Under the pieces are notes generated by a model. That model was not told where the DNA came from. It saw only the letters and a program-made list of their open reading frames with translations, and did not search any database. Both the position numbers and the translations under genes were made by a program. A stretch of 50,679 nt of DNA from a virus (Duplodnaviria; Caudoviricetes), in the IMG/VR virus record IMGVR_UViG_3300031578_000055, positions 1-50,679 of that record; one strand, written 5' to 3'. This document shows, in pieces, positions 33,515-50,679 of the stretch (position 1 is the first letter of the stretch; the number at the start of each line of letters is the position of its first letter).

Positions 33515-33602
33515 ATCCTCCTATCTTTCTTTTTAAACATTAATTTGATTCTATCGATTAAAGAATATCTTCTTATTTTATTTTTCTGCCATTTTGTGAG
33601 TT

Positions 33603-34792: not shown

Positions 34793-34793
34793 T

Positions 34794-34973
34794 CTATATC
34801 TCTATGTTATTTTTTTTTCTTTCTAACTTTTCGGCCATGTCTCTTCTGGCTTTTTCTAGTATTGCCTGCTGTCCATAACTTGACAAAGATCTGTTATCTG
34901 CTTTTGCAGCTTTTTCAGCAGCATCTTTAAACTCTTGAGAACAAACTATCTGTATAATTTTATTTTCTTTCAT
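34794..34973 (-). CDS. Ribbon-helix-helix regulator (not in ORF track)
   Basis: MKENKIIQIVCSQEFKDAAEKAAKADNRSLSSY; AGGAG RBS; first gene of leftward operon. Confidence 0.75.
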   Translation of the reverse strand: MKENKIIQIVCSQEFKDAAEKAAKADNRSLSSYGQQAILEKARRDMAEKLERKKNNIEI

Positions 34974-35084: not shown

Positions 35085-35255
35085 ATGAACTATGAAAATT
35101 TCCATAACATAAATCATTTAATACCTGCTGAATCAGGGACATATACCTGGAAGTCTAAACAAATGGGATATATCAAGGTAAAATATGATCATGGAGATTG
35201 GTTTTTAATAAACGGCGATAAATTACCGGATCGCGTGGTCCAGGAGTGGAGATGA
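35085..35255 (+). CDS. Small hypothetical protein (not in ORF track)
   Basis: GAGGA RBS, 56 aa MNYENFHNIN...QEWR. Confidence 0.65.
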   Translation: MNYENFHNINHLIPAESGTYTWKSKQMGYIKVKYDHGDWFLINGDKLPDRVVQEWR

Positions 35256-35337
35256 TATTTAAAATAAAAACAACAGATAATAAAATACATAAATATCATT
35301 CTATTATTTCTATGGAGTTAGAAAAAGGATTTATAAA

Positions 35338-36045
35338 ATGAAACTGAAAACAATGTTAAAGATTTTTATTAGTATTTTAATTATTGGAATTATTGTTTTT
35401 TTATATTTAAGTTCTTCTAAATATAAAAATATAGTAAATAAACAGCAAACCGTAATAACTCAACATGCTATAAAAATCAGAGATTATATGGTTATGGAAA
35501 ATAATTATGAAGAGTTGAATTTTAATTTTCAGCTTATAGCTTCTGTTAATCCTTTAATTAATTTAATGACACCTGATGAAATAGCGGAGCTATTAAAAGA
35601 AATACCTCATGGAAATCCTCACGAAACAAAATTTGAAATAACTGCTGGATTTGGAATTTCAATCGGGATGCATGGTAAATTAAGAGATGATCACCAGGGA
35701 ACTGATTCGATCCCTATAAACTCTGAAAAATTGGAATGGGGAATTACTGGATTTTCTGATGGAATAGTTGAGACATTTGGACACAATGATGTATTTGGAA
35801 AATTTATTATAGTGCGTCATTCTGAAAGAGTTAGGACTTTTTATGGCCATTTAGATAAAATATATTGGAGTGGAACAACTGGAAGAATCGTAACTTCTGA
35901 TACGGTTATAGGTGAAATGGGAAAAACAGGAATGGTTTATTCAAGATGGAAAAATGGTGGAGCACATTTGCATTTTGAAATACAGGTGTGGGATGGGTTT
36001 CATTGGGTTTCTGTCAATCCAGAACCGTTTTTAATAAATGAGTAA
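35338..36045 (+). CDS. M23 family peptidase with N-terminal TM
   Basis: HQGTD, YGHL, HLHFE motifs. Confidence 0.9.
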   Translation: MKLKTMLKIFISILIIGIIVFLYLSSSKYKNIVNKQQTVITQHAIKIRDYMVMENNYEELNFNFQLIASVNPLINLMTPDEIAELLKEIPHGNPHETKFEITAGFGISIGMHGKLRDDHQGTDSIPINSEKLEWGITGFSDGIVETFGHNDVFGKFIIVRHSERVRTFYGHLDKIYWSGTTGRIVTSDTVIGEMGKTGMVYSRWKNGGAHLHFEIQVWDGFHWVSVNPEPFLINE

Positions 36046-36056
36046 GGAGAAAAGAA

Positions 36057-36551
36057 ATGGATGTATGTAAATGGGAATATGGGAAATTTTACCCATGCAG
36101 CGGATTTGAGCCTGTAGTAGATAATTACAATGAGATAATAATTGATAAGCATAGACCTGTTTGTTGTATTTATTGTGATACTAATATTTCAAAACCGGAA
36201 CCAGAAGAACCAATAATAAAAAAGTCTGGAGAAACATGGGTTGCAAGATATGAGGGTGTTGATTATTTGTGGATCAATTTAAATCTATCTCCAGAAAAAA
36301 GAGAATGGACAGCACCAGAAATAAAAGAATCTTTAGGGTGGAAACCAATTTTAGGAATAGAAATAGCTGATAAAATTGTAAAACTTAACCCTGCAGTTAT
36401 TACAGATGCTTATGGACTCTCTCTTTTATTAGCCATGAGTAGAAATGAAATATTTATAGTTGATTGTATTGAAGATGGAGAATGGGGTTGCAGGACAACA
36501 GCTCCTATGCACTCATTAAAACGTCTAGCCACAATCGATGATCTTCCATGA
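36057..36551 (+). CDS. Hypothetical protein
   Basis: AAGGAG RBS; Cys-rich N-terminus. Confidence 0.8.
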   Translation: MDVCKWEYGKFYPCSGFEPVVDNYNEIIIDKHRPVCCIYCDTNISKPEPEEPIIKKSGETWVARYEGVDYLWINLNLSPEKREWTAPEIKESLGWKPILGIEIADKIVKLNPAVITDAYGLSLLLAMSRNEIFIVDCIEDGEWGCRTTAPMHSLKRLATIDDLP

Positions 36552-36757
36552 TACAACCAACATTTGTAATAAAATTTATAGATCAAGTCCGGTCTGAAAT
36601 GATTAAAAGAAATCTTGGTAATAATGATATTCCAGGTTTATCAAGACAATATGTTTCTTACCTTTTATCTGGAAAAGGAAATGTCGGAGTAACATCTATT
36701 ATTAAATTAGCAAATGCACTTGATATGGAAATAGTTTTGAAGTTGGAGGAGAAATGA
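36548..36757 (+). CDS. XRE-family HTH protein
   Basis: GLSRQYVSYLLSGKGN...IIKLANALD. Confidence 0.8.
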   Translation: MIQPTFVIKFIDQVRSEMIKRNLGNNDIPGLSRQYVSYLLSGKGNVGVTSIIKLANALDMEIVLKLEEK

Positions 36758-37407
36758 AAGAGATAGAACTTAAGTCAGGTAAAAAGATAGAATTAAATCA
36801 GGCTTTTAATTGTGATTGTTTGGAGTTTATGAAAGAACTTCCAGACAAATGTATTGATCTTGTTTTGACTGATCCTCCTTATGGGATAAAAAGATTTCAG
36901 AAAGGTTCTATAAGATTTGCAAAAGATGAAAAATATAAAGATGGTTTAAAGTGGGATGTTAAGCCTGAACAGGTTATATTCGATGAAATATTCAGGATAA
37001 GTAAAAATCAGATTATATGGGGGGCTAATAACTTTACTCTTCCACAGTCAGAATATTTTATTGTATGGGATAAAAAACAAACTGTTGATAATTTTGCATC
37101 TGCTGAACTTGCATATACAAACGTAAAAAAACCGGCTCAAATATACAGTTATGGAATACACAAGCATAACACAATTGAAAAGATCCATCCAACTCAAAAG
37201 CCTAAAGATTTATTTGTATGGTGTCTTAAAAATTACATGAAAGATGGGGATATTGTATTCGATCCTTTTCTTGGTAGTTTTACAACAGCAATAGCTTGCA
37301 ATGAAATGGATCTTAACTGGCTTGGCTGTGAAAAAGACCATGACTATTTCAAATCAGGCTACCACCGATACGAACAAGAAACCAAACAGATACTAATGGA
37401 GTTTTAA
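36754..37407 (+). CDS. N4C/N6A DNA methyltransferase (beta class)
   Basis: DPPY, HPTQKP, DPFLGS motifs. Confidence 0.92.
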   Translation: MKEIELKSGKKIELNQAFNCDCLEFMKELPDKCIDLVLTDPPYGIKRFQKGSIRFAKDEKYKDGLKWDVKPEQVIFDEIFRISKNQIIWGANNFTLPQSEYFIVWDKKQTVDNFASAELAYTNVKKPAQIYSYGIHKHNTIEKIHPTQKPKDLFVWCLKNYMKDGDIVFDPFLGSFTTAIACNEMDLNWLGCEKDHDYFKSGYHRYEQETKQILMEF

Positions 37408-37424
37408 CTATTTTATTAATAGAC

Positions 37425-37453
37425 TTGATTTATAATAAAACACAAACTATACT
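37425..37453 (+). promoter_or_regulatory. Promoter of replication operon
   Basis: TTGATT-17-TATACT. Confidence 0.6.
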
Positions 37454-37485
37454 AAACAATATAACATAATATAAGGAGAAAGCAA

Positions 37486-37656
37486 TTGGAAATAACAAAA
37501 TCTGAACTAGAAATTCTTTATTTAAGCAATAAAAATAAAGTTGTATGTGAAAAGCTCGGTATATCAGAAATGACCTTAATTAAACTGTTAAAAGAAAATG
37601 GAATCAAGAATAAAGGGAAGGGAAATTATCATAATAAAATTATGGTGGTTGGATAA
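37486..37656 (+). CDS. Small HTH-like protein (not in ORF track)
   Basis: AAGGAG RBS, TTG start; VCEKLGISEMTLIKLL. Confidence 0.65.
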   Translation: MEITKSELEILYLSNKNKVVCEKLGISEMTLIKLLKENGIKNKGKGNYHNKIMVVG

Positions 37657-37832
37657 TGATTGAAGAAAAAAAATACCTTGTAACATTTAGAAGATTCTTT
37701 TCTAGTGTGAAAATTGTGATAGATTTTAATCCTGAGTTGTTAGTTTCACTAAGTGATAATTTAAAAACTAATTTTGGAATTGATTGTCCTATTACATCTG
37801 TAGAAGAAATAACCATTAAAAGAAAGGATTAA
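37656..37832 (+). CDS. Small hypothetical protein (not in ORF track)
   Basis: TAATG coupling; 58 aa. Confidence 0.6.
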   Translation: MIEEKKYLVTFRRFFSSVKIVIDFNPELLVSLSDNLKTNFGIDCPITSVEEITIKRKD

Positions 37833-37834
37833 TT

Positions 37835-39070
37835 ATGGGAAAAGACAACAGGCGTTCTGTTGACACTAAATTCTGGACTGATCCAGAAGTTGAGCAACTG
37901 ACAAAGAATGCCACTTATTTATTTAATTCACTATTAACATTCCCTGAAAATAATATGGCTGGAACCTATGAAATATCAGAAGGGAAAATGTCTTATTATA
38001 CTAAGATGAATAAAAATGAAATAAATGAAGCTTTTAAAGAATTGGAATATAAAAATAAAGTGCTTAGATTTAAAACATGGGTATCAATTAAAAATCATAT
38101 AAAAAATCAAAAACTTAACGGAGGAATGGCTATTTCTGTAGTTAAAGATTTATGTGATTGTCCTAATCCTGTTAAATTATGGTTGTTTTATCAGGCAAAT
38201 TCAGAGACTTTAGAGCCTTGGTTCCCTAAGCTTTTATTTAATGTCAATGCATATTTAGGGGAACAGAAAAAAAGATATGCAAATAGGATAGTAAAAGATA
38301 ACCCTAAGATAACCGTTATCGAAGCATTATCTAACTATGAGTTTAACCCTATGACAGAAGACAAGCTTTTGCAGATAATGGTTCAAAACCTCCCTTTAGA
38401 CACAAAAGAGCTTTCAAATCTTAACAGTATGATAACCCTTATCGAATGGTTAGATAACCCTTCGATGAATATAAAGAATAAAAGGGAATTAGAAAAGGAA
38501 TTAGAAGATATAAAAGGAAAAGGGAATAGTAAATTGATTTCGGATAACGTTGTATCCGAAGAGACAAAAATTTCTCCCTCTCCCTTCTCCGGTTTTATTC
38601 CTGAATCTAAAAAACAAAATCCTGATGCTACGATGTTTGAATCTAAAGATATTCTTTCAGAACGGATTACAACAGCCATAGAACATTGGAACACTAAGCC
38701 TAATCTTCAGAAATATAAATATAATGTTTTTAATATGAGAAATGTTGCTGATGTAAAAACTCAGTTTGATGTTTTCTCATTAGATGAAATATTGGGAGCT
38801 ATAAATAATTTATCAAAATATATAGATCGTGATGAAATGGTTTCAAAACAATTTGATAGATTTATTAAAAGTTCTTTGGATAGATGGGTTGATGATGCTA
38901 TGCCTTGGAAGCGATATGAAACCGAAGCTGACAAATCACCAAATCAAATTCAATTAGAAAAGTATGAGGAATATATAAGAACCTGTACAAGTGATTTATC
39001 AGAAGAACAATTAGCTCCAACATATGAGAAAATCAGAAAGGTTAAGAAATTGATCGAGGAGGAAGGATGA
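37835..39070 (+). CDS. Phage replication initiator (replisome organizer-like)
   Basis: N-terminal DTKFWTDPEV...LLT...GTYEIS winged-helix pattern; charged linker; internal repeats. Confidence 0.75.
   Translation: MGKDNRRSVDTKFWTDPEVEQLTKNATYLFNSLLTFPENNMAGTYEISEGKMSYYTKMNKNEINEAFKELEYKNKVLRFKTWVSIKNHIKNQKLNGGMAISVVKDLCDCPNPVKLWLFYQANSETLEPWFPKLLFNVNAYLGEQKKRYANRIVKDNPKITVIEALSNYEFNPMTEDKLLQIMVQNLPLDTKELSNLNSMITLIEWLDNPSMNIKNKRELEKELEDIKGKGNSKLISDNVVSEETKISPSPFSGFIPESKKQNPDATMFESKDILSERITTAIEHWNTKPNLQKYKYNVFNMRNVADVKTQFDVFSLDEILGAINNLSKYIDRDEMVSKQFDRFIKSSLDRWVDDAMPWKRYETEADKSPNQIQLEKYEEYIRTCTSDLSEEQLAPTYEKIRKVKKLIEEEG
38297..38462 (+). repeat. Iteron-like repeats inside initiator gene
   Basis: GATAACC at 38297, 38308, 38431, 38453; GATAACC(G/C)TTATCGAA twice. 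Confidence 0.55.
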
Positions 39071-39345
39071 ATCCTGCATTAGAATTGGCGTTCGAAGCTG
39101 GAAAATGGGCTGGACAAGTAGAGCTTGAAGAGCATTTCGACAGGGAGCAATATTCACAGGTTGTCTTTGAATCTATATATTCGAAAAAAACATCAATGCC
39201 GGCTATTATGGAATCAACTGGTAAAACTGTAACTATAAATTTAAGATCGAATGCATGGCGAATTGGTGTTAAAAAATCATCCAAGGAATATCTTGAAAAA
39301 GCTGAGAAAATATTATCTTATCTCAAAGGGGAACTTCATGGATAA
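39067..39345 (+). CDS. Hypothetical protein
   Basis: ATGA overlap with initiator. Confidence 0.7.
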   Translation: MNPALELAFEAGKWAGQVELEEHFDREQYSQVVFESIYSKKTSMPAIMESTGKTVTINLRSNAWRIGVKKSSKEYLEKAEKILSYLKGELHG

Positions 39346-40084
39346 AGAATCTTTCCTATCCGACATGATAAACCGGTTTGGTTCTAAAAAAAATGAAACA
39401 AAGAAAAAAGAATATTTGGAAGAGCTCCACGTTTTTGCAAATATGTGTCCAGAACAAAACCTTCATGCTGTTTATAATTATGCTGTTTCTGCAGATGGAT
39501 ATCCTACATTAAAAAAACTATTTAGGTTTGCACGAGAACATAATTTTATCCCTGAAACAGATAAATACAGTGAAGATATAATTGTTTATTATAAATGCAA
39601 CGGGTTCTATAAATCAGTAGCAGATGGAGGAGGAAAATATAGTAAAAAGAAATTCGAATGTAATACAAGTTATTCTATAAATTCTGGTGGCTGTCCTAAT
39701 TGTGGATCCACTTCTGGAACTATTGTAAAATGTTTTAAAAGTATCCCGGAAGAAGTTATATTTCTTAAAAATGATTGTTTCAGATGTAAATTATATTTAC
39801 CTGAAAATGGGAGTAAAATTTTATATTTATACGGACCCGAATGTGGAGTGCATGGATCAAGGCATTCTCCTAAAACTGATCAGGTTTGTAAATCTTGCAG
39901 ATGTAAGCCCTGTTGTATTGATACCAGGGAATTTAAATATCAAACAAATCATTACATGGAAAAAGTAAGAGATCCCAAACACGAGATTATGCAGCCGTGG
40001 TTAAAAAATAGTCGTAAACCAGGAGATCATATTGCAATATTAGAAAAGCTTGAAATGTCAAAAAAATATAATAATGGCGGTTGA
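39338..40084 (+). CDS. Cys-rich hypothetical protein (possible replication accessory)
   Basis: ATG 39338 after AAGGGG; several CxxC motifs. Confidence 0.65.
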   Translation: MDKESFLSDMINRFGSKKNETKKKEYLEELHVFANMCPEQNLHAVYNYAVSADGYPTLKKLFRFAREHNFIPETDKYSEDIIVYYKCNGFYKSVADGGGKYSKKKFECNTSYSINSGGCPNCGSTSGTIVKCFKSIPEEVIFLKNDCFRCKLYLPENGSKILYLYGPECGVHGSRHSPKTDQVCKSCRCKPCCIDTREFKYQTNHYMEKVRDPKHEIMQPWLKNSRKPGDHIAILEKLEMSKKYNNGG

Positions 40085-40085
40085 T

Positions 40086-40268
40086 ATGACAAATGAAGAA
40101 TATTTAAGATCAGAATATAAAAGTATGTTAACAGAGGTAAAGAATTCTTTTCATTTGATTAAAATACAGAGAGAAGAAATTAAACGATTAAAATCAAGTA
40201 ATCGTTCTTATCTGGAAATAGTTGTAGAACTCGGTCAAGAATTAAGGGAGAAAGGAAAATACTTATGA
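40086..40268 (+). CDS. Small coiled-coil protein
   Basis: ORF in track; start uncertain. Confidence 0.55.
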   Translation: MTNEEYLRSEYKSMLTEVKNSFHLIKIQREEIKRLKSSNRSYLEIVVELGQELREKGKYL

Positions 40269-40308
40269 TGAAGGCAATAAGCTTTGTTTTAGTTCTAAAT
40301 AATTAAAC

Positions 40309-40324
40309 AGCCTCTTCGGAGGCT
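40309..40324 (+). promoter_or_regulatory. UUCG hairpin abutting RBS (copy 2 of 3)
   Basis: AGCCTC-TTCG-GAGGCT then AAAGGAGG. Confidence 0.7.
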
Positions 40325-40338
40325 AAAGGAGGTAAATA

Positions 40339-40512
40339 ATGAAATATGCAATTATTAGAGTCAATAAACATGAATCTGTAAATGTTGAGTTTGACATAAA
40401 AAATATTGCTGAAAAATTTTGTATTGTCTGCAACAAAGGATTAACTAAAAAAGATGACAATTATTTGATTGTAGAGAGGAGAAATCATGAAAGAGAAAAG
40501 AGAACAGTTTAA
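40339..40512 (+). CDS. Small hypothetical protein (not in ORF track)
   Basis: AAAGGAGG RBS; 57 aa. Confidence 0.7.
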   Translation: MKYAIIRVNKHESVNVEFDIKNIAEKFCIVCNKGLTKKDDNYLIVERRNHEREKRTV

Positions 40513-40645
40513 TTTAAGAATGCCCGAACCGCTTAAAGGCAGGGGGAAAAAAGAAGCTGCATTTTATGGGATAAATATGTCTCAATTTATTGTTCAGGCT
40601 ATAAATGAAAAACTTGAAAAAATAGATATGCGTATAACAGACTAA
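40487..40645 (+). CDS. Ribbon-helix-helix protein (not in ORF track)
   Basis: QFNLRMPEPLK...AAFYGINMSQFIVQAINEKL; GAGGAG RBS. Confidence 0.8.
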   Translation: MKEKREQFNLRMPEPLKGRGKKEAAFYGINMSQFIVQAINEKLEKIDMRITD

Positions 40646-40691
40646 GATGTGCAATGCGGATAATAGTAGTTATGTGGAAAAGGGGGCTAAG

Positions 40692-41042
40692 ATGGAATGG
40701 ATTAGTGTTGAAAAAGAACTTCCGATTGAAGAAGATTATTATTTAGTATCGAGTAATTATGGAATAGTTGTTCGTAGTTTTAATGTTTATCATAATTGCT
40801 GGGACGATGAACAGGCAGATGACTATTGGTGCGATGCAGTAGGTGGGAATGTTACACACTGGATGCCACTACCACCGCCCCCTTCATCACATAACAGCGA
40901 ATATAAGCAATGCGAGTTTTGCCACGATACAAGGTTGTTGTGTAGTGGTGCCGGAGAGTGTGACCATGATGGTAGAGACTGTAGCGAAAGTGATAATTGT
41001 GGTGAATATACACCGGCACTATGTAAGCATTGTACAAATTAG
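40692..41042 (+). CDS. DUF551-like protein with Cys-rich tail (cassette A)
   Basis: MEWISVEKELP...VTHWMPLP; reads through the att site. Confidence 0.85.
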   Translation: MEWISVEKELPIEEDYYLVSSNYGIVVRSFNVYHNCWDDEQADDYWCDAVGGNVTHWMPLPPPPSSHNSEYKQCEFCHDTRLLCSGAGECDHDGRDCSESDNCGEYTPALCKHCTN

Positions 41043-41098
41043 CGCACTGCATATATTCGCAGAACGTTATACACAATTTGTGTCTAAAGGAGAATATA

Positions 41099-41263
41099 AT
41101 GAAAGTTGATTTTAAACAGAAGGCTACATTGGTAATTACACCGGAAAATGAAATAGAAAGTTATGCACTTAGAAAATGGCATGAAGGCTATGTTTCAATA
41201 GAGCCTTCTGAAGAATGTTTATGTGTAGAGTCAATTACAATTGACGACACAAACAATGTATAA
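41099..41263 (+). CDS. Hypothetical protein (cassette B)
   Basis: AAAGGAG RBS; stop lies in GTATAAC. Confidence 0.75.
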   Translation: MKVDFKQKATLVITPENEIESYALRKWHEGYVSIEPSEECLCVESITIDDTNNV

Positions 41264-41331
41264 CAGGGTTTATATGTCATTGATTACAACATCATATAAG
41301 CCGGAAACGTTATAGGCAATTGGAGGGTTAA

Positions 41332-41538
41332 ATGAGAGGAAAAGGTTTACTCGAATGGGAATGGGTTGCACATATTGAATATTCTGATTATGCCGATTCT
41401 TTGTTACATTTTAGTAGTTTAGATGCTACTGATATATTATCTGCAATAGCACATGTTTATCGGCATTGTCGGGAAAGTGGAGTTTTTGAAGTTATTTCTT
41501 TAACGCAACTGCCTATAACAGCAGATACACGGAAATAA
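41332..41538 (+). CDS. Hypothetical protein (cassette C)
   Basis: GGAGG RBS just after GTTATAG. Confidence 0.75.
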   Translation: MRGKGLLEWEWVAHIEYSDYADSLLHFSSLDATDILSAIAHVYRHCRESGVFEVISLTQLPITADTRK

Positions 41539-41591
41539 CAAGTGACTGCATATAAACCCGAAACGTTATGTACAATATTTTGGAGGAGTAA

Positions 41592-41834
41592 ATGGACAAT
41601 AGGCATATGGATATTATATATGATGCATTGTGTAATGACGATGACCCTGTTTTTTCTAGCGAGACTGTTACAGAAATGTATAATTATATCAAAGAATTGG
41701 AAGCTAAAATAAACCTGCTCCAAAATATTATTCATAACAACAGTTTAACAAAATCATGCAGCGGTTGTTGGGGGGAGAATAAGATTTGTTATGGTTGTAT
41801 AGATTTTAGTGGTTACAAAAGCATGACTTCGTAA
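41592..41834 (+). CDS. Hypothetical protein with CxxC..CxxC tail (cassette D)
   Basis: GGAGG RBS; reads through att site. Confidence 0.75.
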   Translation: MDNRHMDIIYDALCNDDDPVFSSETVTEMYNYIKELEAKINLLQNIIHNNSLTKSCSGCWGENKICYGCIDFSGYKSMTS

Positions 41835-41872
41835 AACTGCGAAACGTTATGTACAATATTTTGGAGGATTAA

Positions 41873-42097
41873 ATGAGTAGAAAACCAATAGAATCTTTTC
41901 ATATTGCAGGGATAAAATATGCCTGTTGTCAAGAATCAGATGTTAGAGAGCTTGAAGCTGAACTTGACCAGCTCCAAAACACTATACATAACATCGATTA
42001 TTCGAAATGTCCAGATTGTGAAGGGTACGGGCAAAGCATAAAAGGCTGGACGATAATGCCCTGTAAAAAGTGTAAGGGTACGGGACAAATCGTATAA
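41873..42097 (+). CDS. Hypothetical protein with CxxCxGxG tail (cassette E)
   Basis: GGAGG RBS; CPDCEGYG...CKKCKGTG; shares ELEA...LQN.IHN with cassette D. Confidence 0.75.
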   Translation: MSRKPIESFHIAGIKYACCQESDVRELEAELDQLQNTIHNIDYSKCPDCEGYGQSIKGWTIMPCKKCKGTGQIV

Positions 42098-42235
42098 TCG
42101 CGAAACGTTAGGCGAAATTAGGAGTCAGACATTGTTTAGTAGCATGGACGGCTGGTAAAATCTATTGTAGTGGATGCTGTCAATATATCAAAACTTCGCA
42201 TAATCGCAGAACGTTATGAATAATAAGAGGATCAA

Positions 42236-42430
42236 ATGGTAGACAACGTTAAAGATATAATTAAAGCGTATTGTTCAGTGCATTATCCCGGAGCAGATGG
42301 ATTATGTAATGATGGTTGTGGATGTTCTTTTGACGATTTGCAACCGTGCAGTAGTTCATGTATGCATTGTGTTCCAGCAAAATGGAATGGAGAAGAAGAG
42401 ATTTTTATAGAAATAGACAAATATCAATAA
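42236..42430 (+). CDS. Cys-rich small protein (last cassette-like unit)
   Basis: GAGG RBS after GTTATGA; GADGLCNDGCGC..DDLQPC. Confidence 0.75.
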   Translation: MVDNVKDIIKAYCSVHYPGADGLCNDGCGCSFDDLQPCSSSCMHCVPAKWNGEEEIFIEIDKYQ

Positions 42431-42502
42431 ATGAGTATATTATTAACATAAGGATGAACAATGGATACCATAAACCCGATTAAAAACCCAATTTTGATAA
42501 AG

Positions 42503-42531
42503 TTGACAATTACCCGTACAAGGGGTAATAT
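42503..42531 (+). promoter_or_regulatory. Promoter with inverted repeat, likely leaderless transcript
   Basis: TTGACA-17-TAATAT; ATTACCC-N7-GGGTAAT; ATG 7 nt downstream. Confidence 0.7.
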
Positions 42532-42537
42532 CATTTT

Positions 42538-43065
42538 ATGAATAAAATATGGAAAGAAATTAGGGGATATGATGGGTTTTATAAGATTTCTAATTGTGGA
42601 GATGTATATAATTCGAAATGGGATCGTCCAGTAAAGCAACATATAAACAAATCAAACGGATATTATGAAGTCTGCTTATACAAGAAGCAAAAACGAAAAC
42701 ACCATACAATACATAGATTAGTTGCTCTTCATTTTGTTGGTATTTTATCTGGCCGTGAATTTGTAAATCATAAAGATTCTGATAAACATAACAATGATTC
42801 AACAAACCTTGAATGGGTTACTAAGTCTGAGAATGGTATTCACGCAGGAAAAGCAGGATTACTTTCTGTTAATCTAAGAAAAAATGTAAATCAATTAACC
42901 AAAGAAGGGAATTTTATCAAAACACATATTAGCCTTTCTTCTGCAGCTAGAGAATTAAACCTGCAAAAAACAAATATATCATCTTGTTGTTATGGTAAAT
43001 CAAAAACATGTGGAGGATTCTTATGGGAATTCACTCAAAAGGATATAAACCGTGATCAATATTAA
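42538..43065 (+). CDS. NUMOD4-HNH-NUMOD1 homing endonuclease
   Basis: WKEIRGYDGFYKISNCG, IHRLVA, VNHKD...NLEWVT..EN, C-terminal SLSSAAREL...GGFLW. Confidence 0.92.
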   Translation: MNKIWKEIRGYDGFYKISNCGDVYNSKWDRPVKQHINKSNGYYEVCLYKKQKRKHHTIHRLVALHFVGILSGREFVNHKDSDKHNNDSTNLEWVTKSENGIHAGKAGLLSVNLRKNVNQLTKEGNFIKTHISLSSAARELNLQKTNISSCCYGKSKTCGGFLWEFTQKDINRDQY

Positions 43066-44329
43066 GCAATTCGATCCAAAATCAAACCCGATAGTAGTTA
43101 AATGCACCGCAGCTGATCTATTACCCATAGATAAAATAGTAGGATTCCAGGGTAATTTAAAAAAACTCTCAACTGTAAATCAGAATAAATTAATTAGTAG
43201 TATTCTTATTCATGGCTTTATTGCTCCTTTTTTCTTATGGGATGATGGATTTGAGTTGAGAGTTCTAGATGGAACACAGCGATTAAAAACTATTCTCGCC
43301 CTTCAAAAACGAGGGTGGGATGTCCCGTTGCTTCCCGTTGTATACATTGAAGCAGATAACGAAAAGGATGCACGAGCGAAACTTCTTAAAATAACATCAG
43401 CTTATGGAGAATTCGATTTAGATGAACTCCAGTCATGGATTAACGATATGGATGATGATATAAGTGAATCTATTAGGTTGGTGGATCAGGAGATTGAACT
43501 TGCATTAACTCCGGAAGCTGCTGAAACAGTTGGTGATGAAGAAATTCCGGAAGAAATTATTCCTGTTACGAAATTAGGTGATTTATGGGAACTTGGAGAA
43601 CATAGGCTATTGTGTGGGAGTTCAACGGATATTAATTCTGTCAAGAAATTAATTAGAGAAAATAAAGTTGATTGTGTATTTTCCGATCCTCCATATGGAA
43701 TAGATGTTGTTAAGTCTTCTCAAGTTGGTGGTGGAGGAGAAACCAAGTTCGGTAAAGGTGGTGGTGGAAAAATTGTTGATTCAAATGAGTATAAAAAAAT
43801 AATTGGAGATGAAACAATAGATACTGCTAAAGAATTTTATGAATTATGTATTAGCATGGATTTTAAGAATATAGTATTATGGGGCGGTAATTATTACACG
43901 GCTTTTATTCCTCCTTCTCGATGTTGGATTATCTGGGATAAAGAAATGACAGGGAATTTTTCTGAAGCAGAAATGGCGTGGACTTCTTTTTCAAAAGGGG
44001 GAATTAAAGTTTTTAAATTCTTGTGGAATGGCCTTTCTCGTGAAGGAAATAGGATTGATGAATTAAAGTCAAGAATTCATCCTACCCAAAAACCAGTCGG
44101 GTTGTTTGCCAATATATTTGAAAGATTTGATGGCTTTAAATCCTATTTTGATGGGTTTTTAGGATCTGGAAGTACTTTAATAGCATGTGAAAAAACAAAT
44201 AATATATGTTATGGAACAGAATTAGAACCATCTTATTGTGACTTGATAGTAATCAGATACAAAACATGGTGTGAGAACAACGGAAAGACACCTATAGTAA
44301 AACTTAATGGTGAGGTCTGGAATGGCTAA
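43052..44329 (+). CDS. ParB-N domain fused to N4C/N6A DNA methyltransferase
   Basis: LDGTQR ParB-like N-terminus; GDLWELGEHRLLCG, DPPY, HPTQKP, FLGSGSTLIA. Confidence 0.9.
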   Translation: MINIKQFDPKSNPIVVKCTAADLLPIDKIVGFQGNLKKLSTVNQNKLISSILIHGFIAPFFLWDDGFELRVLDGTQRLKTILALQKRGWDVPLLPVVYIEADNEKDARAKLLKITSAYGEFDLDELQSWINDMDDDISESIRLVDQEIELALTPEAAETVGDEEIPEEIIPVTKLGDLWELGEHRLLCGSSTDINSVKKLIRENKVDCVFSDPPYGIDVVKSSQVGGGGETKFGKGGGGKIVDSNEYKKIIGDETIDTAKEFYELCISMDFKNIVLWGGNYYTAFIPPSRCWIIWDKEMTGNFSEAEMAWTSFSKGGIKVFKFLWNGLSREGNRIDELKSRIHPTQKPVGLFANIFERFDGFKSYFDGFLGSGSTLIACEKTNNICYGTELEPSYCDLIVIRYKTWCENNGKTPIVKLNGEVWNG

Positions 44330-44759
44330 AGTTAAAAACCCAGGAGGAACACCGGCAAATCTTATGCCGGCTTGGAGTGCTACAAATCAGCCTAAAAATA
44401 AAAACGGAAGAAAACCGTCCAGCATTAAAAAATATATCAAAGATAATAATCTCAATGCTACTGATATCTCTGTCCTTGCTAAATATATTCTTCCATTAAA
44501 CCAGGATCAATTAACTGCTTTAATTAGAGATGAAAAAATTCCTTTCGTTGTCAGGATATTTGTTAAATCAGTATTAGAAGATTTTAAACGTGGGAATCTT
44601 TCTAATATTATGACTTTGATTGACAGGGCTGTTGGTAAACCGAAAGAAACAGTTGATGTAAACGAGAATTCAAATAAAACTACTTTAAATGTTGATTATT
44701 CTGATATGTCTGAGGATGAAAAAAGAGAATTGTTTTTCCAGAAGATTAAGAGAGATTGA
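44322..44759 (+). CDS. terS: Terminase small subunit
   Basis: NQP...GRKP N-terminus, LIDRAVGKPKE; directly before terL. Confidence 0.75.
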   Translation: MAKVKNPGGTPANLMPAWSATNQPKNKNGRKPSSIKKYIKDNNLNATDISVLAKYILPLNQDQLTALIRDEKIPFVVRIFVKSVLEDFKRGNLSNIMTLIDRAVGKPKETVDVNENSNKTTLNVDYSDMSEDEKRELFFQKIKRD

Positions 44760-46300
44760 TTTTGAATTTTCCATGGGAAGAACGAATAGAAATAGTTGAT
44801 GATATAAAACTATTAAGAGTTTATTTTGATGCTTATAAAATAGGTGGATCAGAAGCAGTAATAGACTTTATTTCAAGATTTTGTTTGACATTTGACCCTA
44901 GAAAAGAAAAAAATAGAGTAATCCCTTTTGAGCTATTTAAAAAACAAGAAGAATACATTCGGTGGCTTTGGCTAAGATATGTCAACAGAGAGGATGGAGT
45001 AGTTGACAAGTGTAGAGGGATAGGAATGTCCTGGATGAATGCTGGATTTTCAGCTTTTTTAATTTTATTTCAACAAGCAGTAACTATATCAATGTATACG
45101 TATAAAGCAGAAGAATGTCATTCATTGGGGAATATTGATACTTTATTAGAAAAGGTAATATTTATTTGTGATAATTTGCCAGAGTCATTTGTGACCGGAA
45201 TAGAACATAAACTAATGCAGATCAAAAATCATAAAAATGGATCTATAATTGTAGGAAAATCTGGTGATTCTCCGGGGCGTGGTGGTAGATCATCAATATA
45301 TTTTTTAGATGAAGCAGCTTTTTATCCTCGTGCCGATTCAATAGAAGCAGCAGTTTCAAGAAATGCAGATTGCAAAATATGGGGATCAACTCACCATGGA
45401 ACAAATACACTTTTTTATAGAAAATGTACTTCTGGAATAAATCCTGTAATAACATTTGACTGGTGGGAACTCAAAGAAATGTACAACCAGGAATGGTACG
45501 ACCGGGAAAAAGAAAAAGCTGTTGCAGAAGGAACACTTCATATTTTTAAACAAGAAGTTGAGCGTGATGCATCTGCAAGTCTTGAAGCATGTGTTGTTCC
45601 GTCCGAATGGGTTAATGCTGCAAAACGATGTACTGCAAATCTTGACGGAAAGATAATTGCTTCCCTTGACCCAGCCAATGAAGGAGGCGATGTTCACGGT
45701 TTTGTTGTAATAAATGGTAACATGCCTATCTATGCAGAAGAGTCCGGTCTTGGTGATCCTGCAGATGCAACAGATATGTTTTTCTGGAAAGCGGTTGAGA
45801 TGGGAGCAGAGGAATTCAGGTATGACCCGATCGGTGTTGGTGTTGGTGTAGCAATTAGAATGAAACAGATAATTGAAGAGTTGAAAACTAATGATCCTGG
45901 GAATAAAGCTTTAAAAGTAAAAATAAAACCGTGGTCGGCTTCCGGTGCTGTATTACGTCCAGACCAAAGAGATTACGCCGAAAAAGCGAACGGTGATTTC
46001 TTCGAAAATGCAAAAGCTCAAGCATGGTGGAAAGTAAGATCAGAATTTTTGAATACTTACCGGTCTGTAAACAATAAAGATTGTGAAGAAGATCAATTAA
46101 TTTCTTTTCCTGGAAAAATAGATAGATCTTTAGAAAAAATGATAATGGAATTATCTCAACCTCAGTTTACTAATTCAAAACGGGGTAAAACTATGATCGA
46201 TAAAAAACCAAAAGGAAGCAAATCCCCGAACCTTGCCGATGCTTATGTTATGTGTAGAGCTGAAGTTGATGTTGAATGGATGGCATGGTCTACAGTTTGA
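44756..46300 (+). CDS. terL: Terminase large subunit
   Basis: KCRGIGMSW Walker A variant, FLDEAAF, LDPA nuclease Asp, SPNLADAY. Confidence 0.95.
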   Translation: MILNFPWEERIEIVDDIKLLRVYFDAYKIGGSEAVIDFISRFCLTFDPRKEKNRVIPFELFKKQEEYIRWLWLRYVNREDGVVDKCRGIGMSWMNAGFSAFLILFQQAVTISMYTYKAEECHSLGNIDTLLEKVIFICDNLPESFVTGIEHKLMQIKNHKNGSIIVGKSGDSPGRGGRSSIYFLDEAAFYPRADSIEAAVSRNADCKIWGSTHHGTNTLFYRKCTSGINPVITFDWWELKEMYNQEWYDREKEKAVAEGTLHIFKQEVERDASASLEACVVPSEWVNAAKRCTANLDGKIIASLDPANEGGDVHGFVVINGNMPIYAEESGLGDPADATDMFFWKAVEMGAEEFRYDPIGVGVGVAIRMKQIIEELKTNDPGNKALKVKIKPWSASGAVLRPDQRDYAEKANGDFFENAKAQAWWKVRSEFLNTYRSVNNKDCEEDQLISFPGKIDRSLEKMIMELSQPQFTNSKRGKTMIDKKPKGSKSPNLADAYVMCRAEVDVEWMAWSTV

Positions 46301-46325
46301 CAGTATTGTTGATATGAATTATATT
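46297..46325 (+). promoter_or_regulatory. Promoter overlapping terL stop
   Basis: TTGACA-17-TATATT. Confidence 0.75.
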
Positions 46326-46331
46326 TAATAT

Positions 46332-46420
46332 ATCCTTTCTTTTAATGGAGTGCGGCACTGCTGCAAACCCACTCCAAATATTGATTTTAGACCAGAGAAT
46401 GATCCCTCTGGTCTTTTTTT
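46332..46420 (+). ncRNA. Candidate trans-acting antisense sRNA
   Basis: Promoter to terminator with no convincing ORF; 5' 17 nt complementary to 37813-37829; hairpin 46346-46376. Confidence 0.6.
46389..46420 (+). terminator. Intrinsic terminator
   Basis: AGACCAGAG-N8-CTCTGGTCT then T-run. Confidence 0.85.
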
Positions 46421-46440
46421 ATTTATAATTAAAATAAGTG

Positions 46441-46469
46441 TTGACTCTTTACCGCTATAGCGTTATATT
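46441..46469 (+). promoter_or_regulatory. Sigma70-type promoter with palindromic operator
   Basis: TTGACT-17-TATATT with CGCTATAGCG; near copy of 4010-4038. Confidence 0.8.
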
Positions 46470-46498
46470 AAAGATAGATCAAAGGAAAGGAAGTAAAG

Positions 46499-46660
46499 AT
46501 GAACGATTTAAATAAAAACATAGAGGCCCTTACAGAAAAGCAAAGAAAAACAGTTAAGACATTAATTCAGCTTGGAGATAGTAAAGAGCTTGCATATAAA
46601 ACAGTTGTTAATACTAAAGAACATAATTCTGATATGTACGCTTTAGCTTATTATAGCTAA
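46499..46660 (+). CDS. Small hypothetical protein (not in ORF track)
   Basis: AAAGGA RBS; 53 aa MNDLNKNIEAL...AYYS. Confidence 0.7.
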   Translation: MNDLNKNIEALTEKQRKTVKTLIQLGDSKELAYKTVVNTKEHNSDMYALAYYS

Positions 46661-46667
46661 TTAAATA

Positions 46668-46681
46668 GCCTCTTCGGAGGC
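46668..46681 (+). promoter_or_regulatory. UUCG hairpin abutting RBS (copy 3 of 3)
   Basis: GCCTC-TTCG-GAGGC then AAAGGAAGG. Confidence 0.7.
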
Positions 46682-46695
46682 AAAGGAAGGATCAA

Positions 46696-47349
46696 ATGAA
46701 TAAATATAAAAAATATTGTCCAAACGTTTTTGTTATGGAATCGGAAGATGATTATGACCGTGGGGACATAGCAGAAATAGAAACACGGTATGGCAAAGTA
46801 AATGAAGCAATTATATTCAATAAATTATTTGAGCGTGATGGCTTAAAATACTATTCTCAAATAAGAGCCGATGGATTTAATATTCAGGAACGAGCAAAAT
46901 TGAAATCAGAAAAATATGATAACTGGTCGGAATCTGCTTCTAAAAAATCTGATCAGGCTTATCAGGCATCAAATAAACATTCTGAATTCTTGTCACTTGG
47001 AGAACCAATTAAAATAGGTCACCACTCAGAAAACAGACACCGGAAAATGATTTCAGATGCAAATAATAATATGAGAAAATTTGTAGAACTTTCCGACAAG
47101 GCATCGAGCCACGAAAGTAAAGCCGATTACTGGAAATCAAGAGAGAATGATATCAATCTCTCAATGCCTGAATCAATAGATTTTTATGCTCATAAATTAG
47201 AACAGGCAAAAGAGATCCATGTATTTTTAAAGAAAAACCCTGATAAAAGATCTCATAGTTATTCTTTAACTTATGCAAAAAAAGATGTAAATGTCGCTCA
47301 GAAAAATTATGATATCGCTGTAAAATTGTGGGGAGTTTATGAAAAATAG
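46696..47349 (+). CDS. DUF3560-like protein
   Basis: GEPIKIGHHSENRHR motif. Confidence 0.85.
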   Translation: MNKYKKYCPNVFVMESEDDYDRGDIAEIETRYGKVNEAIIFNKLFERDGLKYYSQIRADGFNIQERAKLKSEKYDNWSESASKKSDQAYQASNKHSEFLSLGEPIKIGHHSENRHRKMISDANNNMRKFVELSDKASSHESKADYWKSRENDINLSMPESIDFYAHKLEQAKEIHVFLKKNPDKRSHSYSLTYAKKDVNVAQKNYDIAVKLWGVYEK

Positions 47350-47530
47350 TTTTAATTGTAGATCCTGTGAAGGTTGCAAACATATTACTAATAATAATCT
47401 TGAATATTGCTATATGTTTCAAAGTGCACCTTCAATATTACCATGTGCACAACATGATAAATATGCAGAACAAAGAAAAATAAACGGAAGGAAGATATAC
47501 GCAAATTTCAAAAAAAGGAATAAATTATGA
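47339..47530 (+). CDS. Small Cys-rich protein
   Basis: GGGAG RBS; CRSCEGCKH...CYMF...C. Confidence 0.7.
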   Translation: MKNSFNCRSCEGCKHITNNNLEYCYMFQSAPSILPCAQHDKYAEQRKINGRKIYANFKKRNKL

Positions 47531-47630
47531 CAGAAAAAAATAGAATCTTCACTGAAAATGTTACTGGTATTTGTTTTATTGCATTTATAGCAATTGTATT
47601 TATTTCTATTATTGTGGAGGTGTTATTTTT

Positions 47631-47945
47631 ATGAAAAAATGTAACAAATGCGACTTAGAACATTCTGAAATAGTTATGGTTAAAAATACCTGCTACTTAT
47701 GCGTATTATCTCAATGCCCTTCTAAAACAAGAAGACAAATCAAAGAATATAAAAAAGCGGTATCAATTAGGCTGGCATTATCTACACCATTAACTACAAA
47801 TAATTCCGTTGCAATTGTTGAGCGTATCGGTTTAGAAAATCTCGGATTTATAGATCAGATAGTTAGAGGAATGATTATTGATCATCAACCAGGAGTAAGT
47901 TTTTGCAAAAGACTACATTATTATTTGGATAAGGAAGGATTGTAA
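47631..47945 (+). CDS. Hypothetical protein with N-terminal CxxC..CxxC
   Basis: ATG 47631 after GGAGGT. Confidence 0.7.
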   Translation: MKKCNKCDLEHSEIVMVKNTCYLCVLSQCPSKTRRQIKEYKKAVSIRLALSTPLTTNNSVAIVERIGLENLGFIDQIVRGMIIDHQPGVSFCKRLHYYLDKEGL

Positions 47946-48328
47946 TGAACATAGATTTTATTAAATGGATGTGTGAAAAGACAGAATGGATGTGTACTGC
48001 AGAACTTGATTGGTATGTAAGAACCCCAGATGAAGATTGTTGTTTTCAGATAACAAATCCATCAGATATGAAAGATACAGGATGGACAGACGTGTATTAC
48101 CCCCTTCTCCTCCAAAGAGCTATTGAGGAAATAAACCAGAGTGATGATACTTGTTATTTTATACAGATAAATCTCTATTCTGTTTGTATCACTAATGTGG
48201 ATACCGGAAAGGATATATTTATAGCAGACTATAATGGATCCGATGGGAACAAGCATGCTTCATCAAAAGAAGTCGATCAAGCAAAAGAAGCCGCACTTAA
48301 ATATATTTTAGAACAGGAAACCAAATGA
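47945..48328 (+). CDS. Hypothetical protein
   Basis: TAATG coupling. Confidence 0.75.
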   Translation: MNIDFIKWMCEKTEWMCTAELDWYVRTPDEDCCFQITNPSDMKDTGWTDVYYPLLLQRAIEEINQSDDTCYFIQINLYSVCITNVDTGKDIFIADYNGSDGNKHASSKEVDQAKEAALKYILEQETK

Positions 48329-48540
48329 AAGAATCAATAGGACTAAAAAAATTAAAACTATCAATGGAAACAATAGGGTATAAAAAGGTTTGTGAATTAA
48401 CCGGATTAAAACCAACTATTCTTTATGAATGGTTAAACTATAAAAAAGATCCAAAAAATATGAAGATGCTTAATGCCAGACAAATAAAGTTTCATTTACA
48501 TATCGATTATGAGGATTGGTTCAAATCTTCTGATTGTTGA
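48325..48540 (+). CDS. HTH protein (Cro/XRE-like)
   Basis: YKKVCELTGLKPTILYEWLN. Confidence 0.7.
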   Translation: MKESIGLKKLKLSMETIGYKKVCELTGLKPTILYEWLNYKKDPKNMKMLNARQIKFHLHIDYEDWFKSSDC

Positions 48541-48572
48541 TTTATACGAGCATAGAATGTAAACTATATTCT

Positions 48573-48761
48573 ATGAAAAGAAAATATATTGTATTTTATG
48601 CTCATACCAATGGTTTCGGCTCAACAGATATCGTGGTATCCAGAAAAGAAAGACCTAATAAAATAGAAAATATACATAAAATTGAAGATGTCCTTTCTGA
48701 ATCTCTTCGCTCTCAAATAGCAATAATAAATTTTAAATATGTAGGTATCTCATGGAAATAA
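48573..48761 (+). CDS. Hypothetical protein
   Basis: ATG 48573 just after TTGATT-17-TAAACT promoter; overlaps portal start. Confidence 0.6.
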   Translation: MKRKYIVFYAHTNGFGSTDIVVSRKERPNKIENIHKIEDVLSESLRSQIAIINFKYVGISWK

Positions 48762-50050
48762 ACACGTCCGGGGCCAGATCAATTAATACTAAATCGGCTG
48801 GATTTAGTCCGTATGTCCAACAGGCCTTGTCTGGTGGAATCGGGAATTCCTGGTTATCTCCTACTGCAGCAATGTTGTTATGGGAAACATCAGATACTAT
48901 TTTTAATTGTATCGATTTAATTTCAATGCCTTTTTCTCAAATGACATATTCTCTTAGAGATAAAAAAACCGGGGATTATTTAAGCAAATCAACTGATCAC
49001 CCATTTCTGGCATTATTAGAAAACCCAGGGTTTATGATGAGTTCGAATGAACTTATGTATTCGTTAATGACTTCTTTTTTAGTGAATTCTGTATGTTATC
49101 CGGTATTAGATGGAAATATAAATTATGAACCAGCCTCTATTCGTGCGGTCTATGCAAATAAAGCAAACCTTACACCCGATGGAAATAATCAACTTTTAAA
49201 TATAAGTTTTGCTGATGGAGAAAAAGAATATTTATACAAAAGACAATTGATTCCTAAAAGAAAAACAGTTGTTTATCAAACAGATATTCCTTTATCCGAA
49301 ACAATGCCTATAATAAAAATGAAACGTAGGCACGGGATAGAGGCATCAAGTCCTTTATCGAGAATAGTAAATCAGGCATATACAAAAATATACGGAAATG
49401 TACATAACTCAAGTTTGCTTAAAAATGGATCTCGTCCAGGTGGATTATGGTCTATCGATGGGAAAGCATTAAGTCAGGAACAATATGAATCTTTTAAAAA
49501 TGAAGTTCATAATAATTTTAGTGGTCCTGCTAATGCCGGAGTTAATGTTGTTTCTCCTGCTCCTGTTAAATACGAAAACTTTATATTAAACCCCAAAGAT
49601 ATGGATTTTGTAAAATTAATAGAAGCATCTGCAGAAGATATTTATAATTTATATCATGTTCCTCTTGCCCTAGTATCTACAAAGACAATGACTATGAGCA
49701 ATTTCCAAAATTCACAGACTGCATTATTTGACCTTGCTGTTTTACCTAACTCTTATATTGTTTTAAAAAGACTTGGAGAATTAGCTCTTCCAAGATATAA
49801 AGATGGTGATAGATATGAACTGACTTTTGATGAAAAAACTCTTCCTGCATTACGTGCAAGGATGCTTGAGACTGCCGAAACTATGCGTAAGGTCGGATCA
49901 TATACAGAAGATGAAATCAGAGCAACAACAGGATATGATAATCTAACAGAAGGTGGTGACGCTGTTTATAGACCGGCAATGTGGGTTTCTTCAGAAGCAG
50001 AAGAGGATGATTCTGATATCTCAGGATCTGATGATATACTAGAGGAATAA
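48752..50050 (+). CDS. Portal protein (HK97 family)
   Basis: HPFLALLENP, NGSRPGG, KDMDF...IYNLYHVP, TEDEIR..GY. Confidence 0.95.
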   Translation: MEINTSGARSINTKSAGFSPYVQQALSGGIGNSWLSPTAAMLLWETSDTIFNCIDLISMPFSQMTYSLRDKKTGDYLSKSTDHPFLALLENPGFMMSSNELMYSLMTSFLVNSVCYPVLDGNINYEPASIRAVYANKANLTPDGNNQLLNISFADGEKEYLYKRQLIPKRKTVVYQTDIPLSETMPIIKMKRRHGIEASSPLSRIVNQAYTKIYGNVHNSSLLKNGSRPGGLWSIDGKALSQEQYESFKNEVHNNFSGPANAGVNVVSPAPVKYENFILNPKDMDFVKLIEASAEDIYNLYHVPLALVSTKTMTMSNFQNSQTALFDLAVLPNSYIVLKRLGELALPRYKDGDRYELTFDEKTLPALRARMLETAETMRKVGSYTEDEIRATTGYDNLTEGGDAVYRPAMWVSSEAEEDDSDISGSDDILEE

Positions 50051-50180
50051 ACCCTCCGGGCTAAAAATAGTAGGAGGATATTATGATAATAATAATGACC
50101 CCAAGAAAGAAAAAAGGGATAGTTGTAATGATTGCAGGTGCAGTTACACTTATACTAGATGCAAAGGCGGAAATAAAATA

Positions 50181-50679
50181 ATGGCAACACCAATAGCTCG
50201 TTATAATGTAGTTCCAAATCAAAGAATCTCAGAAGTGTTTAATTTTGGTGTTGTTGCATTTTCTAAAGTTTCAATTGAGAATGTTTCAATTGCAATTGCA
50301 GGGCAAGGATATTTTGGAAGTACTCCATTAGTCTCATCTGAGATAGCATTAAATCCAAGGACTGATGTTTGGGAATATTTTATTGAAATTGATCCTACTG
50401 ATTTTTCGGGGAGTGGATTATTTACTGCCACTGCAACTATTACAGGAACAGATGCAGGGGCATTAGTGTTACCTGCAATTCCTTTAGTTGTAGATGGCGC
50501 TAGTACATTAGAGTCATTTATGGCGTGGGTGTCTACTACAGGAAATGATGGGACAGGAGAAGTTGGGAATGAATTGCTTCCATATTTAACAATTGATGGA
50601 GCAGTAACAGGAATACAGACATCTAGTATCACAAATGTTTCTGATGGTGCTACAATTTATATTAAAGAGGGTACTTTTG
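50181..50679 (+). CDS. Right-handed beta-helix / depolymerase-like protein (3' truncated, not in ORF track)
   Basis: Open from ATG 50181 to window end; WVSTTGNDGTG...PYLTIDGAV...GATIYIKEGTF. Confidence 0.65.
   Translation, partial: MATPIARYNVVPNQRISEVFNFGVVAFSKVSIENVSIAIAGQGYFGSTPLVSSEIALNPRTDVWEYFIEIDPTDFSGSGLFTATATITGTDAGALVLPAIPLVVDGASTLESFMAWVSTTGNDGTGEVGNELLPYLTIDGAVTGIQTSSITNVSDGATIYIKEGTF

Follow-up and report, generated by a model that had tools for sequence, protein, structure and literature searches.

The window analysed here is the whole of the IMG/VR record IMGVR_UViG_3300031578_000055 (50,679 bp, rated 95% complete), from an uncultivated soil phage, and the gene for its large terminase subunit (terL) is followed by a compact promoter–RNA–terminator unit that is probably a real, moron-like small RNA (sRNA) gene. 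The candidate RNA would begin with a C/U-rich tail, ATCCTTTCTTTTAATGG, whose 17 nt (46332-46348) are the exact reverse complement of 37813-37829, the Shine–Dalgarno (SD) region of a putative replication gene. Repression of that gene through pairing of the RNA with its ribosome-binding site (RBS) is the best single reading of the locus, and one that we hold tentatively. The evidence base consists of prediction, one relative in which the unit is conserved, and a seed that is not conserved there.

The promoter of the unit, P1, lies where the original prediction had placed it, overlapping the end of terL, with the terL stop codon TGA (46298-46300) inside its TTGACA. Among 77 promoter-like sites in 36000-50679 it ranks first, and no more than five sites in the whole window, P1 included, score at least 11/12. 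Transcription is predicted to start at A46332, 7 nt past the -10 hexamer, and the stem-loop at 46389-46414 is the highest-ranked terminator match; on one strand and 64 nt apart, the region's top promoter and top terminator together form the sole strong promoter–terminator mini-unit in the genome. This terminator would also end the transcript of the terL operon. The predicted fold of 46332-46422 consists of a free 14-nt 5′ end, a hairpin, an A/U spacer and the terminator, which agrees in coordinates and architecture with the earlier description of a start near 46332, a hairpin and a strong terminator giving about 89 nt (Table 1). Its energy is -27.2 kcal/mol (z = -4.64), and none of 200 shuffled sequences was as stable. 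Rfam gave no match at the gathering threshold anywhere in the window, a relaxed search returned three sub-threshold matches (the best at 21.3 bits against a threshold of 37), and ARAGORN found no tRNA or tmRNA. Three sequencing runs contain the region, all of them soil-metagenome DNA kept as contigs and none of them an RNA run.

The complementarity between the start of the RNA and the SD region, the central claim of the original prediction, is indeed exact over 17 nt, and as inverted similarity it widens to 21/23 positions (46326-46348 versus 37813-37835). The proposed target spans the SD motif AAAGGA, 6 nt before the ATG at 37835, together with the last codons of a 58-aa open reading frame (ORF; 37656-37832), and it is unpaired in the centroid fold. 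Genome-wide, this RBS is the best trans site for the 18-nt tail, at -23.2 kcal/mol (next best -17.7; mean -5.3, standard deviation 2.3). The minimum free energy structure of the cofold contains the 17-bp duplex, with a ddG of -15.3 against -4.3 ± 1.8 (minimum -10.8) for 100 shuffled tails. The tail is in this way predicted to be an accessible seed, complementary to the initiation region of its target at 37813-37829.

The match by itself is not significant, because the number of inverted 17-mer pairs in the window equals the shuffle expectation: two are seen, and composition-matched Markov shuffles give 1.7-2.2, with at least one pair in 65-80% of them. The other pair is the duplicated promoter described below (P2 and 4038-4010). 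Of the trans complements to the 82 crude start regions, those at three other loci extend to 15 nt, and the tail paired with the initiator RBS is alone at 17 nt besides the duplicated upstream region 41559-41587/41840-41868; roughly 0.3 such start-region 17-mers are expected per genome, by extrapolation. The part that is unlikely by chance is the placement, since the complement begins at the predicted +1 of the sole strong mini-unit and occupies its unpaired tail. We put the joint chance of the configuration, as a rough estimate, at 1e-4 to 1e-3, before inflation for freedom in choosing the story.

The wider similarity of 21/23 positions reaches upstream of +1, next to the -10 hexamer, which an RNA-only model does not need and which would fit a feature of the DNA itself, with the inverted copies serving as sites for one DNA-binding protein or recombinase, or marking the trace of a short inverted duplication. 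We regard such a feature as very improbable: there are just two copies (a third site has 3 mismatches, with 0.61 expected by chance), the site is not palindromic, one copy lies within coding sequence and the SD, and no recombinase was seen among the proteins scanned, the scan not being exhaustive.

The label of replication initiator, which the original prediction gave to the product of the target gene, is weakly founded. Over residues 7-100 alone, the 411-aa protein matches phrog_1701 (DnaD-like helicase loader, E 9.4e-9) and phrog_6251 (E 1.7e-6), and its Atlas leads point to phage replication and DnaD-domain clusters; neither NCBIfam nor the PDB yielded a match.

Close relatives of the phage are rare. 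Five TerL relatives were informative, four of which are listed here by the identity of their TerL to that of the window: L004 (77%; a 2,342-nt metagenome contig), L003 (78.5%; a 4,277-nt contig), L091 (67%; a 4,475-nt contig) and L092 (67%; the complete 53.6-kb genome G002). L004 has the unit, and the other three lack it. In L004 it stands at the same place, as a TTGACA-17-TATATT that is the contig's best promoter and a terminator that is its best terminator, ~80 nt apart. By prediction, then, the window and L004 each hold a short non-coding transcript enclosed by its own promoter and a Rho-independent terminator, the arrangement by which trans-acting sRNA genes are recognized. The P1 hexamers and the block TATATTTAA are identical in the two, the spacer matches at 6/17 positions, and the terminator stems are set apart by two fully compensatory pairs plus a G-U change. 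Hexamers, block and terminator have been kept despite the divergence of terL third codon positions (46.7% identity; 55.7% in the non-coding stretch 46301-46498), and these retained signals therefore look selected.

A further variant, X2, a short contig from a soil DNA run, departs from the window at seven positions within 46355-46408. Two of them, 46395 G>T and 46408 C>A, turn a G-C pair of the terminator stem into U-A; 46375 C>T and 46376 A>G preserve the outer stem of hairpin 1 via G-U, and an inner pair is lost through 46355 G>T. In L004 this hairpin is weak by prediction. Compensatory changes, which the original prediction had proposed to look for in related phages, are present in the terminator stem (L004, X2); the seed itself is missing from L004.

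The comparison with L004 also bears on the possibility that the locus is a small protein gene. Open frames exist, of 27 aa from ATG 46345 and of 36 aa from GTG 46350; neither is preceded by a usably spaced SD, an ATG is missing from the corresponding position of L004, and the GTG frame diverges in L004 after the first residues, shifted by a 2-nt indel. A protein product is barely credible on these grounds, and the earlier view that the unit holds no convincing ORF is borne out.

In L003, L091 and L092 a single promoter follows the terL stop and runs straight into a gene, and in L003 and L092 the leader of this promoter is similar to that of P2, the second promoter of the window's terL junction, and not to that of P1. 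The P1–RNA–terminator unit therefore looks like an inserted, self-contained module with the shape of a moron: it has its own promoter and terminator and is present in some and absent from other syntenic relatives. By TerL identity L003 and L004 are closest (81%), followed by the window, with L091 and L092 outside; these relationships and the patchy presence imply that the unit was gained once and lost in L003, or that it moved horizontally. The 3′ end of terL in L003 differs as well.

A plainer account of the same junction, possible if somewhat unlikely in our judgement, is that the terminator ends the 35085-46300 operon before the regulated P2, that the P1 RNA is a terminated by-product without trans function or a leader that feeds the downstream genes by read-through, and that its match to the initiator RBS is a coincidence owed to a tail of low complexity that resembles an anti-SD. 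The terminator is the first strong one on the plus strand after the 35085-46300 array and stands just ahead of P2, every relative has a terL-junction promoter that drives downstream genes, chance alone should yield about two inverted 17-mers per window, L004 has not kept the tail, and the lambda 6S RNA from PR′ is a precedent for short terminated phage transcripts. However, a useless P1 should decay, and its hexamers are intact in the window and L004 despite saturated terL third positions; the fold contains no alternative antiterminator structure, no antiterminator of the Q-type, Antiterm or ArpU families is found in the window (just these three were tried), and chance would hardly place the match at +1. 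If this account is right, the locus is an ordinary one, an operon terminator beside tandem promoters.

The best-conserved segment of the RNA relative to L004 is the hairpin block AGTGCGnCACTGnTnCAAAC (17/20) and not the tail, and three variants agree in (G/C)AUCC, the terminator loop's 3′ half, while their stems differ. Both features would suit a real sRNA that acts on another host or phage mRNA through the hairpin block or the loop's AUCC(C), with the initiator pairing incidental or secondary, and the targets of lambda LPR1/PreS, discussed below, are mainly host-encoded. We consider such another target distinctly unlikely, as the window offers no outstanding complement to the hairpin block (the best sites, at -24 to -25 kcal/mol with a G/C-rich 22-mer, pair imperfectly) and three sequences are too few for calling the loop conserved. 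The best-conserved block also contains an 11-bp palindrome, AGTGCGGCACT, at 46349-46359 on the plus strand; L004 has AGTGCGTCACT here, and the G>T change of X2 at 46355 gives the same centre. Rather than just forming a stem, this palindrome might be bound by a protein, as DNA or as RNA.

Several observations weigh against repression of the replication gene by the RNA. The 5′ tail is missing from L004 (an 11-nt alignment gap), and the unit as a whole is dispensable in the phage group, as its absence from L003, L091 and L092/G002 attests. The tail is of low complexity and anti-SD-like, forming 11 bp with the SD of the next gene at -13.0 kcal/mol; its weaker pairing with other SDs would follow from an apparent resemblance to the anti-SD end of 16S rRNA. 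A 17-nt inverted match per window is expected by chance, and the identification of the 37835-39070 product as an initiator is weak. Nor does a seed appear elsewhere in the relatives. L004 has a different unpaired C/U-rich stretch, between the hairpin and the terminator, which was considered as a relocated seed and rejected, being equalled by 8.4% and 6.4% of random 91-nt windows; it has no outstanding partner on its own 2.3-kb contig, which is too short to include the replication module. In G002 the relative of the initiator has 27% identity and a different RBS, and no complement to this RBS occurs elsewhere in that genome. X2 shares at least 46325-46354, the tail included, with the window (a unitig overlap), which may mark a recombination boundary; coverage of the target was thin for X2 and X3. 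Replication modules have evidently been swapped within the phage group, and a lineage-specific tail, which a real regulator would require, would also result from coincidence. What stands of the proposal of a trans-acting sRNA aimed at the initiator RBS is thus the anatomy of the unit, its conservation in L004 and the rank of the RBS as the best trans site, whereas the complementarity is not kept in L004.

Wider searches added no instance of the unit. A covariance model built from the window and L004 (R1) recovered only those two training sequences among 12 sources (181,654 nt), with nothing in G002; a match of 24.5 bits in G001 was discarded as merely a terminator, antisense to a 230-aa minus-strand ORF that it overlaps. 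Against the phage collection, blastn with 45800-47000 gave no match, and protein searches gave 9 records for the DUF3560 protein encoded downstream of the unit and 1 for the initiator, with no close relative among them; tblastn with TerL matched 721 records, all below 60% identity, the best rows being annotated as terminase. A TerL-guided search of genome contigs and a portal-guided search of viral contigs found no relative, and the sole match of the initiator-guided search of viral contigs (L031) was set aside, having 51% identity, another RBS and no TerL relative. The pattern of the seed plus the start of the hairpin had 0 matches in viral contigs. That of the conserved hairpin block had 0 in viral contigs and 26 in genome contigs, the latter consisting of the 20-24-nt pattern alone and attributed to chance, and the P1 pattern occurred at 59 viral loci, none with a TerL relative or with similarity past the promoter.

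Returning to repression of the replication gene through its RBS, we picture the following course. The unit would be a moron-like sRNA gene between terL and the late-gene promoter P2. The host sigma-A RNA polymerase would initiate from P1 near A46332 and end near 46420, releasing an RNA of ~89 nt. The RNA and the terL operon would use a common terminator, in the manner of a 3′-UTR-type sRNA (UTR, untranslated region) with its own promoter. The unpaired C/U-rich tail would then form a 17-bp duplex with 37813-37829 over the SD and the end of the upstream coupled ORF, barring ribosome entry and lowering the yield of replication protein. Because P1 looks constitutive, the dose of the RNA would rise with genome copy number, and the outcome may be a negative feedback of the plasmid style, or a shut-down of replication at the onset of packaging. 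The role in immunity that the original prediction had also entertained is unsupported, as no integrase or repressor was found among the window proteins scanned, in a scan that was not exhaustive. A bolder version of the same mechanism, rather unlikely in our view, holds that promoter, hairpin and terminator make up a portable scaffold at the terL junction, whose lineage-specific tail would be a captured inverted RBS copy of the resident replication module; the dosage feedback would serve as a replication-to-packaging timer, and the C/U stretch of the L004 RNA would serve another module.

The proposed mode of action has a parallel in pMV158 RNAII, whose 17-nt single-stranded 5′ tail inhibits translation of repB via its initiation region (PMC4485353). 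Both are short RNAs made up of a 5′ tail, a hairpin and a U-rich 3′ terminus. The proposed target of the phage RNA is likewise the translation start of a putative initiator, and both belong with a Gram-positive, SD-dependent type of host (for the phage, an inferred member of the Bacillota). RNAII, by contrast, is cis-encoded opposite its target and fully complementary to it, whereas the phage RNA is encoded 8.5 kb away on the same strand and matches over 17 nt; RNAII belongs to a streptococcal rolling-circle plasmid, and the phage RNA has an extra hairpin, serves a phage replicon and shows no sequence similarity. With its 17 nt, or 21/23 positions, of complementarity, the phage RNA falls outside the plasmid copy-control class of CopA, RNAI and RNAII, which are encoded in cis with full complementarity.

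Among phage RNAs, P1/P7 c4 and P22 sar are antisense RNAs that block an RBS, with c4 listed as trans-acting (PMC12197685). They resemble the candidate in pairing around the RBS of a phage gene, but their targets are antirepressor genes in temperate immunity circuits; the candidate would act on a replication gene, and the window proteins scanned included no lysogeny functions. The c4 RNA is also processed from the same operon as its target. The 3′-UTR sRNAs MicL and DapZ have their own promoters and are chromosomal, Hfq-dependent and enterobacterial; as in the phage unit, part of the promoter lies within the end of the preceding coding sequence, and sRNA and mRNA have one terminator. In lambda, LPR1/PreS is an RNA of ~88 nt whose 3′ end is an early-operon terminator; it is expressed in the lytic cycle, is linked to replication and enhances translation of host dnaN, and its targets by RIL-seq are mainly host-encoded (bioRxiv 10.1101/2024.10.31.621285). 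Length and the use of the upstream operon's terminator as the 3′ end are similar; PreS, however, enhances a host gene, whereas repression of the phage's own replication protein is proposed here, and there is no sequence or Rfam relation. The same preprint describes the lambda 6S RNA from PR′ as a short terminated transcript and states that what it does for the phage is still undetermined. The PR′-6S-tR′ arrangement, in which a terminated leader awaits antitermination by Q, is similar in placing a strong promoter and a short terminated transcript just upstream of late genes. It differs in three respects: the window has no match to Q or Antiterm (PF06530, PF03589; just these two families) at E <= 0.1, a separate P2 stands between the terminator and the first downstream gene, so that P1 is not the sole late promoter, and the phage unit is an insertion relative to L003, L091 and L092.

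Phage-encoded sRNAs are few and come mostly from enterobacterial temperate phages, and antisense control of initiators is classic for plasmids, where the RNA is encoded opposite its target. A keyword search of full-text literature returned no paper on a trans-encoded phage RNA directed against the phage's own replication-initiator RBS, which does not prove that none exists. Antisense control of an initiator is itself already known; if the reading holds, the present case would be new in being trans-encoded, in a phage and as an RNA moron. It would extend copy-control logic to the development of a lytic phage, an SD-using (probably Bacillota) soil myophage, and would mean that morons can be RNA genes with swappable seeds.

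Table 1. Positions of the unit, its proposed target and other features of the window.
Feature	Position	Strand	Details
P1 promoter, TTGACA-17-TATATT	46297-46325	+	-35 at 46297-46302, -10 at 46320-46325; 11/12
Candidate non-coding RNA, ~89 nt	46332-46420	+	both ends predicted
5′ tail (seed) ATCCTTTCTTTTAATGG	46332-46348	+	C/U-rich; 14 nt predicted unpaired
Hairpin 1	46346-46376	+	5′ half AGTGCGgCACTGcTgCAAAC
Intrinsic terminator	46389-46420	+	stem-loop 46389-46414 with 9 pairs (5 G-C) and an 8-nt loop ending AUCC; then T-run
P2 promoter, TTGACT-17-TATATT	46441-46469	+	palindrome CGCTATAGCG in spacer; feeds downstream small genes and portal; outside the RNA
Proposed target	37813-37829	+	SD region of gene 37835-39070, overlapping 3′ end of ORF 37656-37832
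Putative replisome organizer/DnaD-like replication protein, 411 aa	37835-39070	+	weak PHROG matches
terL, large terminase	44756-46300	+	phrog_2 terminase large subunit, E 7.7e-21; last gene of plus array; stop inside P1 -35
Portal	48752-50050	+	
Sheath gene	6305-7876		
Plus array (early/middle)	35085-46300	+	methylases, DnaD-like replisome organizer, HNH endonuclease, candidate small terminase, terL
Minus array	24364-34973	-	SbcC-like protein, helicase, resolvase-like protein
Methyltransferase gene	43052-44329	+	ParB-like/GmrSD_N-like N-terminal region fused to N6/N4 DNA methyltransferase (phrog_498, E 3e-58)
Second methylase	36754-37407		
Minus-strand cassette	3985-1548	-	small ORF, PAPS-reductase-like (phrog_2302, E 1.9e-83), ParB-like (phrog_2159, E 2.5e-67)
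Hairpin	23827-23848	both	called as terminator on each strand

The gene set of the window is that of a tailed phage with a sheath, a soil myophage. Two divergent arrays both start near 35 kb, and structural genes resume beyond terL and carry on across the record's end to its beginning. AGGA, GGAG or GAGG stands upstream of 50 of the 82 crude ORFs, and the plus array opens with a 12/12 sigma-70-type promoter, TTGACA-16-TATAAT, at 35037; the host therefore reads SD sequences and sigma-70-type promoters, from which we infer a member of the Bacillota.

Downstream of the unit, P2 has a near-identical counterpart on the minus strand at 4038-4010 (TTGACT, 6 nt, CGCTATAGCG, TTATATT). Both sites fit their common pattern with 0 mismatches, against an expectation of 0 such sites in shuffles, and L004 keeps the P2 palindrome as CCGCTATAGTGG (L004 1898-1926). 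This suggests that the two promoters share an operator for some regulator. The 4038-4010 promoter feeds the minus-strand cassette at 3985-1548, which is embedded among plus-strand head and tail genes of the structural region and is probably a moron for DNA modification or anti-defence. From P2 onward, ~2.4 kb of small genes (46499-48761, +) separates terL from the portal gene, and this set varies among the window, L003, L004 and L092. One of its members, at 46696-47349, encodes a DUF3560 protein (PF12083, E 1.1e-38), whose nearest relatives in the phage collection are an unannotated human-faecal phage record and Porphyromonas and Pasteurella phages (44-58% identity).

Elsewhere in the window, the ParB-like/GmrSD_N-like–methyltransferase fusion gene stands directly upstream of the candidate small terminase. 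The hairpin at 23827-23848, with the plus-strand tail genes (ending at 23822) on one side and the convergent minus array on the other, is probably a bidirectional terminator. A 12/12 TTGACA-17-TATAAT at 19394-19422 (+), inside the ORF 19129-19581, may be an internal promoter or a chance match. Finally, a direct repeat of ~29 nt (cgaaacgttatgtacaatattttggagga) at 41559-41587 and 41840-41868 on the plus strand, directly upstream of the ORFs 41592-41834 and 41873-42097, respectively, appears to be a duplicated promoter/RBS cassette.

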